Assembly: GCA_000004695.1 (NCBI GenBank)
Contig: CM000153.2
Location: forward strand, 1,664,001 to 1,728,000
DNA length: 64,000 bases
Direction of reading: 5' to 3'
Source: Dictyostelium discoideum
Taxonomy: Eukaryota
This document shows positions 5,237 to 57,366 of this stretch, in pieces (within the stretch, counting starts at the first letter, position 1; each line of letters begins with the position of its first letter). The notes under the pieces were generated by a model. It was not told where the DNA came from, searched no databases, and saw only the letters and a list, made by a program, of their open reading frames with translations. The translations under genes and the position numbers were made by a program.

Positions 5237-6304
5237 TTGTGCTGCACTTTCAAATTAAAAATGTCCACCAAGCCAGTTAGCTTAACAAAAGAAATAATTT
5301 ATAAAATAAATAATTTTTTAAAAGATAAAGATACTTTCACCCCATTTAAAATCAAAGAAAAAGTATATGATAATAATATTTCCTTCACAACAATCCAAGA
5401 TAATTATGGTTATAATATTAATTGTTTACAAGGTGACAATTTGTGTTTAAAGGGTGCATCCAAAAATACCATCAAAATTTCAGTATACGCGTCGTTTTCA
5501 GATTTTTGGGGACATGCTTATTTCTTACATTATCATCTTGGACACGCACCAGCACATAAAATTTTAAAGATACTTAAAGAACTTAAACTTGGATTTCCAA
5601 AAATGAATAATGATATTTCAAATTATTTAATGATCATTTGTCCCATGTGCGTTCATTCTAACCGTAAAAATTTCAGTTCAAAAAACTTCGACCAAAATGA
5701 ATATTACAAAATATGTGAATGTATTGGTATGGATCCAGCACTCCTTATACAACCACAAATAATAAATCCACTTAACAATGTAAGAGGCAATGAAGAATCA
5801 ATGACATTTTCTTTTCTCACAGATCCAACTCCAACTGCGTACCTCGGCGAACCCACCCAAATAATAAATGTACCACCAACATATGATTACCAAATCATAA
5901 ATAGAGAGATATCAGATGAAATAGAGCCATTGATTTTTAAACCAATCATCAATAATTTAAAAATATTTCCTGCCGATTTGAATGATATTCCAATGTCTGC
6001 TTCCGTTCCAGAGCTTTTCGCTGAACCATACCTACATGTTTTCAAATCGTTTCCTCTTTATAAATCAAGTACTTTTGTTATTTGTATCGGTCGTTTTAAG
6101 AATATTGAAAATGAGAATTTACCCTTTTATTTAATAATAGCTGTAGATATAGACGATATTAAAAATAATGACCATATTCTATTAAATTATAGACCTTTGT
6201 TACAAGATCAAATAAATGGAAATTTTCATTTATTTGCAGAATTTAACCACAAAGAACACTCAAAAAAAAAATTAATAGAAATTGTACCATTCGCCAATTT
6301 GTAA
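5237..6304 (+). CDS. hypothetical protein with an HHCC-like zinc-binding motif (H-x-H-x2-H-x3-H … ~28 aa … C-P-M-C); part of the helicase island
   Basis: 355-aa ORF. LHYHLGHAPAHKILKILKELKLGFPKMNNDISNYLMIICPMC resembles the HH-CC zinc finger of integrase N-terminal domains. No DDE triad was recognised downstream. Confidence 0.35.
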   Translation: MCCTFKLKMSTKPVSLTKEIIYKINNFLKDKDTFTPFKIKEKVYDNNISFTTIQDNYGYNINCLQGDNLCLKGASKNTIKISVYASFSDFWGHAYFLHYHLGHAPAHKILKILKELKLGFPKMNNDISNYLMIICPMCVHSNRKNFSSKNFDQNEYYKICECIGMDPALLIQPQIINPLNNVRGNEESMTFSFLTDPTPTAYLGEPTQIINVPPTYDYQIINREISDEIEPLIFKPIINNLKIFPADLNDIPMSASVPELFAEPYLHVFKSFPLYKSSTFVICIGRFKNIENENLPFYLIIAVDIDDIKNNDHILLNYRPLLQDQINGNFHLFAEFNHKEHSKKKLIEIVPFANL

Positions 6305-6894: not shown

Positions 6895-9099
6895 ATGTCC
6901 AACAAAAGAGCCAGGATCGAAGATAGAGTTAACTTTTTAAAAGAAGAAAAATTTAATAAACCATATAATGTAGGTTTTAATTTAGATCCAAATAATGGGG
7001 AAGAAGAATATTTTGATATTGATACGAAAAGGGCTATTACCATGGTGGAAACGGCTCTTTGTACTTGTAAAATTGATGTCAGTATTGCTGTTTTTACAAT
7101 CTTAAAAATTCTTTCTTTAAAATTTGTTTTCAATACATCTGAAAATAAATTTTTTGTTAAAACCATTGGTTTCAAGGATAAAAATACAGGAAATGTTTCT
7201 TATGTTTTGGAAGAGATAAACGAATCAACAATTAAAAATATTCTTGGTTTAAATGATGGAATATCAAACAACAAATTAGAATCTGTACCTACCGAGCCAA
7301 TGACAGATAATATGATCTATGATGTGGATTTGGTAACCGATTTGGGTTTAAATAGAATTAAATTTGGTTTAGCAATTGAAGTTATGGAATATTTCAAAGA
7401 TTCAGAGAATTATTATTATCCAACGGGTAGATGTGGTTATACATATAGTGAATGGGAAGAAATATTTATAAGATGTCATTTGAAATCAAACTACAAAGAG
7501 AGCACAAAATCTATTGATATTTTGGGTTTTTTCAGATCTTCAACACTTGGTTACAGAGTCAATAATTTAATTTATGAACCACATGGCGCATTGGACCAGT
7601 GTGAAATTGTTGATGGTTTAGATGAGTGGTCCGGTGCATTCAATCAATTTACGGGTTTCCATCCAGAGTCGTTTGAACCAAGAAGAGATGAGATCGATGA
7701 TTTGGGTTTAAAGGTTGGGTGGAGAAATGATAAAAACATAATGAAAATTCTTTTTCATATTTATGTTGTTTGGTGTGATAGTTATGTCCCATTATTCCAA
7801 TATGTTTTATCCTGGTTTACAATATCTCTATTTGCTCCTAATACCAAACTTAGTAAACATTTAGTAATTTTCGGTCAACAAGGTTGTGGTAAATCGTTAC
7901 CAACAAGAGTTTTATTAAAATTATTCTCTGATAAGAATAGTTTCTTTGCTAATAGTGCCGAAGACGTTTTGGGTCATTTTAATCATCATTTAAATGGTCG
8001 GTTGTTTGTTGCTGTTGATGAACTTTCACCTAAATACTTGGAGCGTGAGAGATTTAAATCTCTCTTGACAGGTAGAGAAATGGTTATTACTCAAAAATAC
8101 AAGGGTAAAAAAAAAGAAATTAATAGGCTCAGATTCATCTGCTGTACAACCTCAAATAAAATCCAGAAAGGTCAAAGTTGTGTTCAATTATTAGTGTGCT
8201 CTCCAGTCGCAGTCGGTCAAACAAATTATTTTAAAAATTTGCACAATAGTATTGAAAATTTTGATGTAAAACTTTTCACTCGTATGTTGTTCGATGTATC
8301 TTTGGATAATTTTGGCAACGGTGGTGTAGAAATATCTAATCCATCCATTAATGCATATTCTACCACTTCAAATGTTATCAGATCTAACAGAAATGATAAC
8401 CAGGATGATAGTGTTAGTTTATACATTAATAAATTCTTGATGTCATGTATTCTTGATGGAGGTATATTGAGGGATGAAAATAATAATTATCATTGGCCCT
8501 CAAGATTACCAATTAGTAAAATAACCGAGAGATTCAACCAATGGATATCGGACACTTATCCATCAAGTAACGAAGTTAACGGTGAATTGGTTGCATCTGA
8601 AAAATCTCCTCAACGTTTGGTTTGTGAAAATATTATCACAAGTAATAATTTGATAACTTATATTTATCAAGCTGGTGGTTTTAAATATCTTTATACCACA
8701 TCAGGAAATAGATCGTCTATCAGTCTCTCAAGTAATGAGTATCAGTTTGTTTATGAATTTTTAAACAAGAACATTTCTTTATTCACACCCAAACAAATTG
8801 ATACACTTTGTGAAAGATATCTATCCCTTGGTATATCTGAACCAAATGAATTAATATCACATTTAACCTTAACTAAACAAAAACGAGTGAACCCTTTTGA
8901 AGAAATTGATACACATGTCTTTGAAGTTATAGAACATATTCATAAGAGTTTCTTAAGAACAAATGGTGATAGTACTTATTTTAAGGGATGGGGTGATGAA
9001 GTTGATCCAATTCTAAATGTTGAAGTTCCTGGTACAATGTTACTAAATGATCCATTTATTAAAACCCATAGGGAGTTCTTATCGTCACAAATTAATTAA
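6895..9099 (+). CDS. superfamily-3 helicase domain protein of the D5 / phage P4-alpha primase-helicase type (734 aa)
   Basis: Walker A VIFGQQGCGKS (nt ~7873-7899), Walker B LFVAVDELS (~8008-8030) and SF3 motif C FICCTTSN (~8140-8157) in the canonical order and spacing. ~300 aa N-terminal to Walker A includes YFDIDTK, a possible AEP-primase motif I. Single long ORF without introns. Confidence 0.65.
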   Translation: MSNKRARIEDRVNFLKEEKFNKPYNVGFNLDPNNGEEEYFDIDTKRAITMVETALCTCKIDVSIAVFTILKILSLKFVFNTSENKFFVKTIGFKDKNTGNVSYVLEEINESTIKNILGLNDGISNNKLESVPTEPMTDNMIYDVDLVTDLGLNRIKFGLAIEVMEYFKDSENYYYPTGRCGYTYSEWEEIFIRCHLKSNYKESTKSIDILGFFRSSTLGYRVNNLIYEPHGALDQCEIVDGLDEWSGAFNQFTGFHPESFEPRRDEIDDLGLKVGWRNDKNIMKILFHIYVVWCDSYVPLFQYVLSWFTISLFAPNTKLSKHLVIFGQQGCGKSLPTRVLLKLFSDKNSFFANSAEDVLGHFNHHLNGRLFVAVDELSPKYLERERFKSLLTGREMVITQKYKGKKKEINRLRFICCTTSNKIQKGQSCVQLLVCSPVAVGQTNYFKNLHNSIENFDVKLFTRMLFDVSLDNFGNGGVEISNPSINAYSTTSNVIRSNRNDNQDDSVSLYINKFLMSCILDGGILRDENNNYHWPSRLPISKITERFNQWISDTYPSSNEVNGELVASEKSPQRLVCENIITSNNLITYIYQAGGFKYLYTTSGNRSSISLSSNEYQFVYEFLNKNISLFTPKQIDTLCERYLSLGISEPNELISHLTLTKQKRVNPFEEIDTHVFEVIEHIHKSFLRTNGDSTYFKGWGDEVDPILNVEVPGTMLLNDPFIKTHREFLSSQIN

Positions 9100-18163: not shown

Positions 18164-18396
18164 TAATTAAAGATTGAATCATTTGCAGCATGAGTTTATA
18201 ACCATTTTTCCTATCTGTGTATGATGATGATAGGTGTACTTTATGCCTTTTCTAATCATTTAAAATCTTTACCAATTACTTTTTTTTAAAAAAAAAAAAA
18301 TATTATCACTTTCACTTACATTTGCTTATGGTTGGCAATGAAAAAAAAAATGAAAAAAAAAAAAATTTTGAAACTTTTTTATTCCAGAGCCCCTAG

Positions 18397-26025: not shown

Positions 26026-26477
26026 ATAAATAATAAATTTATTATTCCAACCTTTTTTTTCTTTTCTTTTTTCAACTTTTTTAATTTATTTATTTATTTA
26101 TTTATTTATTATTTTAGTTAAAAACTCTGATTTAATAATAAAGTCGTAATAAAAAAAAACATTTGTTCATTTTAAAAAAAAGAATTAACATAAAAAAAAA
26201 AACTTTGTTTATTTTTAACCAAAATGTAAAAGTAGTATTTACTTTAATTTATTATTGCTAATATTAATTTATATATATTTTTTAATATTTAGATATTTTT
26301 AAATTTATATAATATTTCCTTTTATGGATATTTTCTACATTAAAATTAAATTAAAAATAATTCACGTATTAGATTTTTTTTTTTTTTAACTTAATTAAAT
26401 CAGAGTTTTTAACTGAAATAAAAATAAAAAGAGGAAAAAAAAAAAAGGGAATAATAAAATTATAATAATTAATTTAT

Positions 26478-27446
26478 TTATTTTTCTAATAAAATGTTTG
26501 AATTTCTTTCTTTTTGAGATTCAATCTGTTTAGTAATTTCATTAACTTTAGCTTCAGCAATTTCAAAGGTACTTAGTGGACCAATGAAAATATTATATGG
26601 TAATTCTGATTTAGTGGAGTTTTCAACAATAACGTCAGCGACTTTATCTGGATCACCTGGAGTTACAGTTGCTTCTGTATATTTCATTATTGAACCAAAT
26701 ATCTCACGACTTTTATATTCTGGAATTAAATTTTTACAATAATCATTTGCACTTTGGAAACCAGTGGCAATATAACCAAGTATTATACATGATACTTTAA
26801 TATTAAATGGTAAAACATCTTGTGCTAATGATTCTGTTAAACCAACCAATGCGAATTTAGCACCACTGTAATTACCAAATCTTGGGTAACCTTTAATACC
26901 AGCAATTGAACTTACATTAAATATATAACCATTGTTTTTTGAACGGAAATAAGGTAAAACTGATCTAATGACATTTAAAGGACCAAAGTAAAGTGCATCC
27001 ATTAGTTTTTTATCTTCTTCTTCTGAAACTTCTTCAACTGATCCTACAAGTCCAAATCCTGCATTATTAATTACATGTGTAATATCTCCAAAATGTTCAA
27101 TGGTTTTTTCAATTGATTCTTGAACTGATTTTCTATCTGTAATATCGACTTGTAATCCTAAAAATGATTTATCATTGAAAATACTTAATTCTTTTAATTT
27201 ATTAATATTTCTTGAAGTACCTGTCACTTTATGACCTAATGATAATAATTTCTTTGCTAATGATAAACCAGTACCACTTGTACAACCTTTAAATAAAATT
27301 GAGAAATAATAATAAAAAAGTTAAAATAATGTTTGAAAAATTATAATGAAAAAAATAAAAATAATGTAATAAAACTTACCTGTTATATACCAAATCTGAG
27401 TGTTTTCAGTATTTATTTCAGTATTTGAATTTAAAATTGGTTCCAT
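26478..27446 (-). CDS. SDR paralog B (intact); join(26478..27286,27380..27446), 291 aa
   Basis: Same motifs as copy A; a single phase-1 intron after MEPILNSNTEINTENTQIWYITG; uninterrupted to the stop. Confidence 0.85.
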
Positions 27447-28375: not shown

Positions 28376-28885
28376 TTAAGAATATAAAAATAGAATTAAT
28401 TAAGTTTACTCATCAATTGAATGTCAAATCGGTAAACGCCTCAGTTTTTTTTTTTTTTAATATTTACTATTGAATTTCAGAATATAAAATAATTTTTTTC
28501 TTTGAATTTTTTTTTTTTTTAGTTGTGGTGGTTTGGAAATGTGAAATTATGAAAATATTTTGATGTTTGGGTGTAAAAATTGGGTGTTAAAAAAATAAAA
28601 AAATTAAACTAAAAATAAAAATTACTCTACCAATCGTTTTATGATAATAGTTTTTTAAAGAATTAATTATAAATCTGAAAGAAGCAATGTTTTTAAAAAT
28701 AGAGTAATCAGAGGTATATAATGGAATTGTTGTCAAACTTGAACAAAATAATTTCTTCGAACAGAAAATCAAAAAAAAAAAAATATAAATAAATGAAGTT
28801 TTTTTTTTTTTTCCATCATTCAAAACAAAAATTAATAAATTAAATAAAATAAATAAATTTAATTAAGTGAAAAAAAAATTAAATA

Positions 28886-29841
28886 ATGGAACCAATTTTA
28901 AATTCTAATTCTGAAAACACTCAAATTTGGTATATTACAGGTTTGTTTTTTTTATTATTTTAATTTTTATTATTATTTCTAAAATATATAAAAAACTAAT
29001 TAACTAATTATATTTAAAAAATTTAAAGGTTGTACAAGTGGTACTGGTTTATCATTAGCAAAGAAATTACTATCATTAGGTCATAAAGTTACCGGTACTT
29101 CAAGAGATATTAATAAATTAAAAGAATTAAGTATTTTCAATGATAAATCATTTTTAGGATTACAAGTCGATATTACAGATAGAAAATCAGTTCAAGAATC
29201 AATTGAAAATACAGTTAAAACATTCGGAGATATTACACATGTAATTAATAATGCAGGTTATGGACTTGTAGGAACTATAGAAGAAGTTTCAGAAGAAGAA
29301 GATAGAAAATTAATGGACGCACTTTACTTTGGTCCTTTAAATGTCATTAGATCGGTTTTACCCCACTTTAGAAGTAAAAGGGATGGTTATATATTTAATA
29401 TAAGTTCAATTGCCGGTTTGACAGGGTTACCAAATCTCGGTAATTACAGCGGTGCTAAATTCGCTTTGGGCAGGTATGACCGAGTCCCTATCACATGATT
29501 TAAAACCATTTAATATTAAAGTATCATGTATTATACTTGGTTATATTGTAACTGGTTTCCAATCATCTAATCAATTTTGTAAGAATTTAATTGAGGATTA
29601 CAATACCTATGAAAATGTTACAAATCAAATGAAACAATATGAAACATTATTAATACCAGGTGATGCAAATAAAGTTGCTGATGTTATCTTTGAAAATTCT
29701 GTTAAATTAGAATTACCATATAATCTATTCATAGGTCCAATTGATACATTCACAATGGGTCAAATTAAAGTTGACCAATTACAACAGCAACTATTATCTC
29801 AAAAAGAAAGAAATTCAAATGTTGTTTTAGAAAGAAATTAA
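28886..29841 (+). pseudogene. SDR paralog C; join(28886..28940,29029..29841) with a +1 frameshift near 29465 (gctttgggcagg where ggcagg is expected)
   Basis: Exons and motifs match copy B up to YSGAKFAL in one frame and from GMTESLSHDLKPFNIKV… in the +1 frame. The two frames meet at a G-run with one extra G. Confidence 0.55.
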
Positions 29842-29956
29842 AATTTTTACAATTAAAATAAAAAAAATTAAATAAACTATATAATATTGTTACTTATCAA
29901 TACTATATTTTATTTATATATTATTTTATTTAAAAATATTTTTATATTATTATTAT

Positions 29957-32537
<2,581 letters not shown>

Positions 32538-43061: not shown

Positions 43062-43391
43062 ATGAATATCTTTTTTAATAAAAAACAAAAGACCCCATCA
43101 GAATTGGTTAAATCCATTAAAGAAAGCCTTGCTTCAATGGATAAAAGTGGTCCAAACTCTAAATCAACCGAAAAGGTAAGCTATTTTTAATCATTGGAAT
43201 CATTTTCTATTTATATCTTATTTTTAAAAATAAAATAAAATAAAATAAAATAAAATAAAATAAAATAAAAAAAAAAAAAAGATCATACCACAGTGACTAT
43301 CAATTTTTTTTTTCTTTTACTCTTTCTTTCCTTCTTTCTTCCTTAATAAATATTAACATTATCACACCCTCCTTCAATTTAATCAAAAAAA

Positions 43392-43423
<32 letters not shown>

Positions 43424-44242
43424 AAAAGGCATCAGAAGAAATTTCAAAATGTTTACAAGAGATTAAAAAGATATTACATGGTGATTCAGAGCATGAACCA
43501 AATCAAGAGGTTGTTGCTGTATTATCAAATGAAATATGTACCAGTGATTTGGTACAAATCCTTATTAAAGATTTAAACAAACTCGAGTTTGAAGCTAAAA
43601 AAGATGTAGCTCAAATTTTCAATATTTTATTAAGACATAAAAATGGTGCTCGTTCACCAATTGTAGAATATATCGCTAAAAATCCAGAAATTTTAGATTC
43701 ATTAGTTAAAGGGTAATTAGTACTTAAATATAGTATAATAGACAGATAAAATATACATACCTACAGGAGTGATCGATCGATAGATAGGTAGATAGATATA
43801 TAGATAAATAAATAATTATAGGAAGATAGTGATAGTTTAGTAATAATAGAAAATATCATTCCTCCCTCCCTCCAATTAATATCAAATACTGACATAAAAT
43901 ACCTAAATAAACACATACATACATACATACATAAATAATCATTTATTTTAAATTATTAGTTACGAACAACAGGATATTGCATTAAATTGTGGTACAATGC
44001 TTAGGGAATGTATCAAGCATGAATCATTGGCTAAAATTTTAATATATTCACCAAACTTTTGGGAGTTCTTTGAATTTGTTGAAGTTTCAAATTTTGATGT
44101 TGCTTCTGATACATTTGCCACCTTTAAAGAGATTTTAACAAAACATAAAACACTTAGCGCTGAATTTTTAGAAAAGAATTACGATCAGGTATATTTCATA
44201 TATATATTTATTTATTTTTAGTCATAGGATAAATTATTCTAA

Positions 44243-44275
<33 letters not shown>

Positions 44276-44396
44276 CTTTCTCTCTTTTCTTTTTTTTTCT
44301 CCTTTCAATCAATAATACAGGTTTTTGAAAAATATACTACTTTATTAAACTCACAAAATTATGTTACAAGAAGACAATCTATCAAGGTAAATAATA

Positions 44397-44465
<69 letters not shown>

Positions 44466-44958
44466 CAGCAATAGTTTATATAGTAAGAGAGTTTTTTTAG
44501 TTTTTAAGAGTTCTATAGCTTTTAGGTGAGCTTTTATTAGATCGTTCAAATTTTAATATTATGCCGTTTATATATCAGTTCAGCAGCAAACCTTAAATTC
44601 ATGATGAACCTTTTAAGAGATAAATCAAAGAGTATTCAATATGAAGCATTCCATGTTTTCAAAGTTTTTGTTGCTAACCCAAACAAAACAAAACCAATCC
44701 TTGAAATTTTAACTAAAAACAAAGAGAAATTAATAGCTTTCTTATCACAATTCCATAATGATAAAGGTATATTTAAATTTATTTTTTTTTTTTTTTTCAA
44801 AAAAAAAAAAAAAAAAAAAAAAAAAAGAAAACATCCCCCCTAACTATAGTTATTATTATTTATTATTATTTTATAAATTATTAATAAAAACAGAGGAAGA
44901 TCAATTCAGTGACGAAAAGAATTTCTTGGTTAAACAAATTCAAGCTATCCAAGGATAA
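43062..44958 (+). CDS. MO25/CAB39 (scaffold for STE20-like kinases); join(43062..43175,43429..43712,43960..44188,44321..44386,44519..44766,44894..44958); ~334 aa after removing one extra base in exon 5
   Basis: Colinear with human CAB39: …[15 protein letters not shown]…, [100 protein letters not shown]. All junctions GT…AG. A +1 frame slip between …NFNIM and YISSAANLK (7 nt where 6 are expected). Confidence 0.85.
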
Positions 44959-44970
44959 ACTTTTTTTTTA

Positions 44971-45001
<31 letters not shown>

Positions 45002-45282
45002 TTATTACTTTTTTTTATCTTTATCATAAAAATATATCATCAATCACTATCCATAATCGCTCAAATAATAATAATAATAATAATAATAAAATAATAATGA
45101 TAATAACAATTCAAAAATTAATAACCAACCTGTAGTTTTTTAAAAATCCAAATAAATAAAAAAAAAAAAAAAAAAAAAAAATAGTAACAATAATAAAAAA
45201 AAACAAATTAAAAAAAAAATAACAAACAAGTAAATACATTTAAATAAATAGCAACGTATAGAAGAGCCATCTAAACTTTGTA

Positions 45283-53685: not shown

Positions 53686-53892
53686 ATGCCTCAAAAAGAT
53701 CCATTGGATCATTTTATATCTAGAATTTATAATAAAACCACATCAACAACATCAATACCAATAGCCTTACCACTTACTAAAAAACCAATTATTAATAATA
53801 ATAATGATGATAGTGGGATAATTGTAAATTTGGACGATAATAATAGTGATGATGAGAGAACACCATCCTCACAGTCATTTTCGACACCTAAA

Positions 53893-53962
<70 letters not shown>

Positions 53963-54687
53963 CATATTCAACACCACAAAAACAACAAGCTCAACCTCAG
54001 CAACAATCATATTCAACACCACAAAAACAACAAACTCAAGTTCAACAACAATCATATTCAACACCACAAAAGCAACAAACTCCTCAACAGCAACAAACTC
54101 AAGTTCAACAACAATCATATTCAATACCACAAAAACAACAAGCTCAAGTTCAACAACAATCATATTCAACGCCACAGAAGCAACAAACTCCTCAACAGCA
54201 ACAAGCTCAAGTCCAACAACAATCATATTCAACGCCACAAAAGCAACCAACTCCTCAAGTTCAACAACAATCATATTCATCAACACCACAAAAGAATACA
54301 AGTTTTGAATTAGATAGTTATTTTGATGTTGATAATGAACTAGAAGTCTTTTCACAACCACAAACACCCTCTCAACAATCTGATAAATCGAAAACAGTTA
54401 TTTCACCTATATCAACACCTAAAAGCAAAATCTCTTTAAATGATTTCTCACTCATTAGTCCAATTTTGAAACACAGTACCAATAAAAGTGACTTGAAAAA
54501 GAACAATAGTTTTGATAAAGACATTGACTTTTTTGAAAATAATTTTAATATAAATGTAAATAGTTTAAATAATAGTCTTGGTAGTAGTCAAAATAGTGCA
54601 ACTATTTCGAATAGCAGTAGTCAAAATAGTATCACTGTCTCCCCAAATAACAGTTCAAATTGTATCAATAACGATAATAATAATAAC

Positions 54688-54718
<31 letters not shown>

Positions 54719-54960
54719 TCAGTAATAATTCTCTTGGGAAGAGACCCCTTTCACTATTCACTTCGACAACATCTAATAAAAAACAAACCACAACAACAAC
54801 TACCACTACTACAACCACCCCTACATCTACAACACCTACCAATAAAAAAAATATAACAGATTATTTTTTAGATGATTCCGAAGATGAAGATATTTTTGTA
54901 TCTTCATTATCTTCACAATCTTCCATGTCAAATAAATCAAATTCATCATTAAATAATTCA

Positions 54961-55025
<65 letters not shown>

Positions 55026-57226
55026 TAATTGTAAAGGAGGAAATTCAGATTTAGATTTTTTAGATGATTTCGATTTCGGTTATGAAGATGAAGAGTTCAT
55101 GTTTGATGAATATTCAATTAAAAAAAGTAGAAATGAACTCTCTTCTTCTTCTTCGCAACCATTTATAAATACATGTATAACTACTTCTACAAAAATAACA
55201 TCAACAAATTCAAATAAATTATTATCAAAATCAGAATCAAGTTTAGATACTTTACTTTTCAAAAAACCAAAAACACCTCAAAAAAAACAGAAACACATTT
55301 CTTCACCTTTGCTTCACTCATCTCAACCAATCCCTTTAACAATGGATTCATCACTTTCAAAAGATATTAAAAATTCATTGATACCAATAAAAACTCAACC
55401 AATAACAACTACCACTTCCACTACCACTACTAATAGTAATACAAATACTACCAATAATAATGATAATAGTATAATAAAAATAGAAAAACCATTTAAAAGA
55501 TTAACAAATGGATCAATACCACCAATATTAATATTAAATGCACCACTACCAAATAGATTTAAATTTAAAAGTAATTTATTAGATTTTAAACCAACATTTC
55601 AATATCCACCATTTTCATTATTGATTTCATTATCAGAGCTAAAGACATCAAAAGGTATAAAGACAGTATCAGTAAAAGAGATTATGGAAGGAGGTCAAAA
55701 CTATACCACTCTATGCGATACTCGTAATCCTGAATTTTCAATTGAATTAAAAACACCAAAATTTGCAATTACCAATACATTGATGGTTAATGATTGTTTA
55801 GAATTGGAGGAAGGTAAAGAAGATTCATTCTATATCACTGATTTAGGTTATCGTTATGCTAGAATATTTCAAGATTATCATAATGATTATTTAGAATTTT
55901 GTAAAGTAAACTCTTTAAGAATTAATGTTGCTCAAAATGATGTAACCATTGTAATTGATTCATCAGAGAAATTATCAAATGAATTTAAAAGAAACTTTAA
56001 TGAAATGGGTATAAATTCAATTAATACTTTTCAATTACCATCTGCTGATTTTATTTTCTTAAAAAAGAATTCAAATAATAATAATAATATCAATAATAAT
56101 AAGAATCATTCATTCTTTAATAATAATAATATTTATGATATTGATAGTGGTGGTAATGCATTAATGTTTCCATATATAATTGAAAGAAAAACTTGGAAAG
56201 ATTTAAGTGCATCAGAAAAGGATGGTCGTAATGCTAGACAAATGACAAAGATGAAAGCTTATGGTAAATTAAAAGGTAGATTCTATTTGGTTGAAGGTGA
56301 ACCTTCAAATTATAATTCAGAATATCAAGTTACAACAATTGAAGAATTAAAAAAGAGATTAGATCTTTTAACTACTGCTGATAATTTTACAATCATTAAA
56401 ACAAATTCACCCTATGATACAACTCGTCAAATTGCTATAATTGCAAAAATGTTATCAACTGATCCAATTTTATCAAATCCTTCAAATTTATTATTATATA
56501 ATGATTTTAAAGATGCTGTAACTAAATCAAATTATGAAAAATATCATCAAAATAATAATATTAATATTAATAATATCAACAATAATATCAATAATAATAA
56601 TCCAATTATGGAATTAGCATTAACACAAATGGCTGATCAAACTGATTTATCAGTTATAGAACATTCAAAATCTAAATCTGAAAAAATATGGTTTCAAATG
56701 ACAATTGATCAATTTAAAGAGTATATTCTATCATCAGATTATAGAGATCAAATTAGAAATACAATGAATAATAATGAATATAGTTCAAAAAGAAAGATTC
56801 TTATTATAAATGAATTTAATAAATTTAAAGTACAACAACAGAAATCTCATAATCAATTATTTCAAGATTACCTTTATCAAAGATATAATAATAGAAGTGT
56901 AAATAATATTTCTAAAAGTTTTAGAAATGAAAAAAGTTTATTACTCTCTGATTATTTAGATAATGATATAATTAATCATTATCTATTACAATTGATTCTA
57001 CATTTTAATCTTCAAATATTTATTCAATTTCATGATAGTGAACGTGGAAATGTTGAATCATTTTCATCATTTTCAAAATCAATTGAAAAAGCAATTCAAC
57101 TAAATCAAGATTATCAACACAATCTAAAATTTAAAACTATATTTGCCAAAACAATTCCAGTTTTTAGATCGATAAAACAACAAAGATTAGAAGATTCAAT
57201 TAATTATAGAAATGAATTAGAAAATT

Positions 57227-57299
<73 letters not shown>

Positions 57300-57366
57300 T
57301 AATAATAATAATAATAAAAATCAATTTAGTTATATTGATGATATTATTGATTTAGATGATGATTAA
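53686..57366 (+). CDS. ERCC4 nuclease-fold domain protein, probably an Eme1/Mms4-like non-catalytic partner (XPF/MUS81 family), 1226 aa with a very long low-complexity N-terminus
   Basis: MFPYIIERKTWKDLSASEKDGRNARQMTKMKAYGKLKGRFYLVEG matches the ERCC4 signature ERKxxxDLxxSxxDGRxxxQ…YLVE. There is no clear GDxn catalytic aspartate pair, which fits an Eme1-type partner. The Q/N/T-rich repeats (PQKQQ…) are typical Dictyostelium low complexity. Confidence 0.5.

Follow-up and report, generated by a model that had tools for sequence, protein, structure and literature searches.

Does the MO25 gene of Dictyostelium discoideum carry a shifted reading frame in its fifth exon, or does the shift belong to the assembled sequence and not to the organism? 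The question arises from a 64,000 nt stretch of assembled DNA (the window), two long ORFs of which exactly match D. discoideum AX4 proteins: DDB_G0284223 (EAL65300.1) and the prolyl-tRNA synthetase (EAL65287.1). These exact matches suggest that the window belongs to the AX4 reference of 2005. The G+C content of the window is 16–34% in 2 kb bins, making it very A+T-rich. One of its genes is the single-copy D. discoideum orthologue of MO25/CAB39. MO25 is a helical-repeat scaffold that activates LKB1-STRAD and the GCK-type Ste20 kinases.

The gene has six exons, and its spliced coding sequence in the window is 1006 nt long (3n+1). All five introns carry GT..AG boundaries, in line with the first-pass annotation, which had described the flanking exons and splice sites as intact. 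The exons are as follows.

43062–43175 (+), MO25 exon 1: ATG at 43062, GT donor (gene model); identical to an RNA-seq contig (L002, described below).
43429–43712 (+), MO25 exon 2: AG/GT boundaries; 100% identity to L002.
43960–44188 (+), MO25 exon 3 (gene model): zero differences from L002.
44321–44386 (+), MO25 exon 4 (gene model).
44519–44766 (+), MO25 exon 5: 248 nt in the window, 247 nt in all other sources.
44894–44958 (+), MO25 exon 6: stop codon TAA (gene model and comparison with L002).

A protein search with the repaired MO25 product recovered 3,464 MO25/CAB39 proteins (PF08569). The top matches are 334 aa long and 98–99% identical to it, and come from other D. discoideum assemblies, D. 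cf. discoideum and D. citrinum. The intact allele (P0001) covers practically the whole Pfam Mo25 profile PF08569 (481.6 bits, with a gathering score of 31.2; positions 2–331 of 332), with identity at both the TK and KLMM motifs, whereas the literal product of the window scores 328.7 bits and covers only profile positions 2–244 of 332 before the frameshift, which is argued below to be false. Structures of human MO25alpha (1UPK, 2WTK and 3GNI) match the intact allele over residues 4–332 (E = 4.5e-129).

Within exon 5, one frame (frame A) encodes 15 conserved residues followed by 10 codons and a TAA stop, and the frame lying +1 relative to it encodes a 65-residue MO25-like run. The two frames meet over 7 nt, CCGTTTA (44564–44570, +), the window reading ATG-CCGTTTA-TAT at a point occupied in every MO25 protein by two residues, Thr-Lys (6 nt). 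Both the slip and the early stop in the upstream frame had been reported by the first-pass annotation and are confirmed here. Two sites in the exon depart from the intact allele.

44564–44570 (+), frame-slip site: CCGTTTA in place of ACTAAA, comprising A>C at 44564, an inserted G at 44566 and AA>TT at 44568-9.
44600 (+), KLMM to KFMM change: a window-only A>C converting Leu (TTA) to Phe (TTC), ten codons past the junction.

Deletion of any single base within 44564–44570 restores a 334-aa ORF. Relative to ACTAAA, the lesion consists of three substitutions plus one inserted G, which is more than a simple 1 nt insertion. The surrounding 19-residue block is invariant, being the same in all dictyostelid MO25 orthologues and in human MO25alpha (1UPK), and the window breaks it twice, with 7 nt in place of TK and with Phe in place of Leu. 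Both frames had been taken as perfect MO25 matches; this holds for the first frame, but the second carries KFMM instead of KLMM, a motif that is universally conserved, including in 1UPK. Apart from the changes described here, the coding sequence of the window shows zero differences from the intact allele, and its protein is otherwise identical to the MO25 of other D. discoideum assemblies.

Independent DNA and RNA sequences covering the slip site were available from several sources. Searches with P0001 retrieved the MO25 genomic locus of a wild D. discoideum isolate (L001; GCA_054859355.1) and a 1,216 nt intron-less contig assembled from RNA-seq run SRR24091726 (L002). Two loci of a chromosome-level D. 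discoideum assembly, GCA_054883475.1 (L003 and L013), were retrieved via the neighbouring Metallophos and prolyl-tRNA synthetase genes, and further loci came from a second wild D. discoideum isolate (L014) and from D. citrinum (L015). The genes flanking MO25 are the same in L001 and L003 (Pkinase, CAF1, MAP65, Metallophos and Mito_carr), as is the six-exon structure of MO25 in L003. Comparison with GCA_054883475.1 covered window positions 6106–27834 (L013) and 38425–60163 (L003), and identity to the window was 99.4% for L003 and 99.6% for L013 over 21.7 kb each (43.5 kb together). Between these two segments, a 436-aa ORF at 29957–31267 had no entry in the protein collection.

All of these sources read ATG ACT AAA TAT at the slip site, namely GCA_054883475.1, the wild isolates L001 and L014, D. 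citrinum L015 and the RNA-seq contig L002, and this version gives an intact 334-aa protein. When L003 is spliced at the window boundaries, its coding sequence is 1005 nt long, equals P0001 and is contained exactly in L002. Over the spliced mRNA (5′ UTR, coding sequence and 3′ UTR), L002 differs from the window only at 44564 (C in the window, A in L002), 44566 (G, gap), 44568-9 (TT, AA) and 44600 (C, A), together with two homopolymer lengths in the 3′ UTR. The five coding changes span 37 nt, and the same five separate L003 from the window. Re-sequencing and cDNA comparison had been proposed as the way to check the slip; an equivalent comparison is provided by L001, L002, L003, L014 and L015, none of which has the 7 nt version and all of which encode an intact protein. 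The earlier view that the gene is otherwise functional is likewise borne out by the intact coding sequence in independent DNA and in a spliced RNA-seq contig.

Searches for the window version among known proteins gave a consistent picture. The truncated 256-aa product and three 'repaired' KFMM variants are absent from a collection of 15 billion proteins, and no match in the protein search with the repaired product carried the variant of the window. A homology search with the 86-aa C-terminal half containing KFMM returned only short MO25 fragments from other organisms, with at most 82% identity; it found no Dictyostelium fragment of either allele and no annotated C-terminal MO25 fragment with Phe.

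The slip is not an isolated difference. It lies in a patch of changes seen only in the window, which begins late in intron 4 and runs through exons 5 and 6, with the intron between them, into the 3′ flank, and which the first-pass annotation missed. The patch and the low-complexity sequences next to and within it are listed below (no strand assigned).

44389–44464, (TAA)n microsatellite in intron 4, directly upstream of the patch.
44483–45149, patch of window-only differences, 667 bp: 15 substitutions, an inserted G at 44566 and an extra TTCAAAA at 44796–44802.
44782–44827, T16-C-A29 homopolymer block within intron 5, with both its C and its run lengths seen only in the window.

Seven of the substitutions are T>G changes at the end of intron 4 (44483, 44487, 44489, 44491, 44500, 44508 and 44510), and five are A>C (44564, 44600, 44836, 44839 and 45149); the remainder are AA>TT at 44568-9 and A>T at 45111. 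T>G and A>C thus account for 12 of the 15 substitutions; the G+C content of the region is about 20%. Among the 28 substitutions that distinguish the window from L003 and L013, 15 fall within the patch, while the other 13 are scattered over 42.8 kb, mostly beside homopolymers. This is an enrichment of about 74-fold (Poisson P = 2.5e-23; binomial P = 1.9e-20).

A five-way genome alignment (window, L003, the wild isolates L001 and L014, and D. citrinum L015) showed which sequence is the exception. The window differs from L003 at all 15 patch substitution positions in pairwise comparison, and at 11 of them, as well as at the inserted G, all four other genomes stand against the window. At the other four positions (44491, 44508, 45111 and 45149), D. 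citrinum has a gap or an uncertain alignment, and L003 and L001 have a non-window base, as does L014 when its aligned row is read by eye. Counted as singletons in this alignment, substitutions number 11 for the window and none for L003. Polymorphisms separating the wild isolates are common to the window and L003, indicating that these two belong to the same lineage.

Two other features of the comparison between the window and GCA_054883475.1 were seen outside this region. A lone window-only C in place of A at 18392 (gagccCctag) directly precedes a poly-A run and is of the same A>C type as found at MO25; it may be another isolated miscall. At about 25 sites, A/T runs differ in length by several bases, the window always being longer, by 3–16 bases. 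This suggests either a systematic compression of homopolymers in GCA_054883475.1 or their expansion in the window, as a second error mode independent of the MO25 patch.

The +1 slip is best explained as an error of this assembly, resulting from poor base calls over a stretch of about 670 bp, with MO25 intact and expressed in the organism; we put the probability of this reading at about 95%. The strongest argument is that the slip is one of some 17 window-only changes in a patch that extends beyond exon 5 into the intron on either side and into the 3′ flank. The changes are private to one assembly, clustered without regard to exon–intron borders and beyond the coding region, mostly create G or C, and lie beside low-complexity runs, all of which points to poor base calls and not to biology, and they are contradicted by independent DNA of the same lineage and by RNA-derived sequence, both of which are intact. 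The stretch 44483–45149 would then have been built from low-quality base calls, in which a dozen true Ts and As were miscalled as G and C, respectively, and a single G was added in error. Most likely, the technical cause would be Sanger reads degraded by polymerase slippage; the stretch borders on the (TAA)n microsatellite and holds long poly-T and poly-A runs. Residual errors of this kind in the Sanger-era AX4 reference would share with the present case their restriction to one assembly, their position by microsatellites or homopolymers, the high A+T content of the genome (about 78%) and the breaking of a conserved ORF. When AX4 was resequenced, 1,916 shared candidate departures from the reference came to light, which were put down to reference errors or clone differences (PMC3466296). 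The MO25 slip site was not found listed anywhere in the literature on Dictyostelium MO25 or on the new dictyostelid assemblies.

The main competing explanation, which is quite improbable, is that the lesion is real, a genuine cluster of mutations in the sequenced laboratory clone (for example, an error-prone repair patch) that cuts MO25 after residue 246 and makes the locus a young pseudogene or null allele. The bases are present in the assembled sequence, and no full-length MO25 labelled AX4 is found among the protein matches, only a 265-aa UniParc prediction (P0065) that ends inside intron 3. Such a history would need about 17 changes in 667 bp with essentially none elsewhere in 43 kb, and at the rate measured in AX4 (2.9e-11 mutations per site and generation; PMC3466296), this number of independent real mutations is not credible. 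The changes also enter introns and the 3′ flank with a miscall-like T>G and A>C spectrum by low-complexity runs, the near-identical assembly of the same haplotype and the RNA-seq contig are intact, and the truncated product occurs in none of the public assemblies indexed. A unitary pseudogene does not fit either, the lesion being absent from all other sources and the 1005 nt coding sequence otherwise unchanged from the intact allele. Rather less probable still is the specific form in which local hypermutation of the sequenced clone (some 17 changes over 667 bp, T:A>G:C for the most part) knocked out MO25; if true, the reference laboratory strain would be without its LKB1/GCK scaffold, and the patch would be a record of an unusual clustered-mutation process in Dictyostelium. 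A further possibility, that the error lies in the other sequences and not in the window or that strains simply differ by an ordinary polymorphism, is very improbable. The homopolymers of L003 and L013 are systematically shorter than those of the window, which points to an error mode of their own, but five independent sources, comprising three assemblies of D. discoideum, that of D. citrinum and the RNA-seq contig, all contradict the window, and the state they share is conserved between human and Dictyostelium. A strain polymorphism is opposed by the wild-isolate polymorphisms that place the window and L003 in the same lineage.

Programmed +1 ribosomal frameshifting is known from antizyme, Ty1 and Euplotes, and the MO25 locus resembles such sites in having two conserved half-ORFs offset by +1; its splice sites are intact. 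That recoding of this type, or RNA editing, restores the frame from a real 7 nt sequence can nevertheless be set aside almost entirely, and the first-pass annotation had also judged it very unlikely. The other genomes are in frame and equal to the cDNA: the in-frame 6 nt are already present in the DNA of four other assemblies, so agreement with cDNA needs no editing. The shift is conserved in no orthologue, and none requires it, all orthologues and the RNA-seq contig being in frame. The junction reads AUG CCG UUU AUA UAU, in which no known +1 motif was recognised on reading the sequence by eye; it has no stop or hungry codon, the zero-frame stop lying 10 codons further on. Recoding also leaves the window-only changes in the introns and 3′ flank unexplained. 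A tiny intron at the junction was considered as well and rejected, an intron of 1 nt or 7 nt being impossible.

The assembly error has consequences for annotation. The false frameshift probably explains why no full-length MO25 protein labelled AX4 was found in the search, and the only window-like MO25 protein recovered, the old 265-aa UniParc prediction P0065, reads into intron 3, which suggests that automatic gene prediction at the locus was damaged by it. For this reference, the practical value of the result is a corrected exon 5 (AAT ATT ATG ACT AAA TAT ATC AGT ... AAA TTA ATG ATG) for work on MO25 and LKB1, for primer and guide design, and for pseudogene counts. It also illustrates how an artefact can be recognised, by window-only changes that form a patch spilling into introns.

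Newer annotations of MO25 are also longer than the 334-aa protein, at 363 aa (L003 15138–17026, −) and 350 aa (L014 1501–3441). The 350-aa model (P0121) translates 16 residues from part of intron 4, indicating that the (TAA)n intron is wrongly spliced in these automatic models although the DNA is intact.

Several features elsewhere in the window were recorded. An intron-less ORF of 734 aa (6895–9099, +) matches Pfam DUF5906 (49.6 bits) and a VapE-like domain (33.5 bits), and is also annotated in GCA_054883475.1 (L013 774–2978). Such domains are typical of D5-type primase-helicases of phages or large DNA viruses, and the ORF may have a viral origin or have been gained by horizontal transfer. 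Two short-chain dehydrogenase (adh_short) genes in opposite orientation, at 28829–29842 (−) in the window and at L013 20286–21316 (approximately window 26400–27430), share about 81% DNA identity and are diverged inverted paralogues. The segments 1–2000 and 54001–56000 show raised G+C (0.27–0.34), a strong negative GC skew and a positive AT skew, and coincide with long ORFs at 532–2097 and 53686–57366 (1226 aa).
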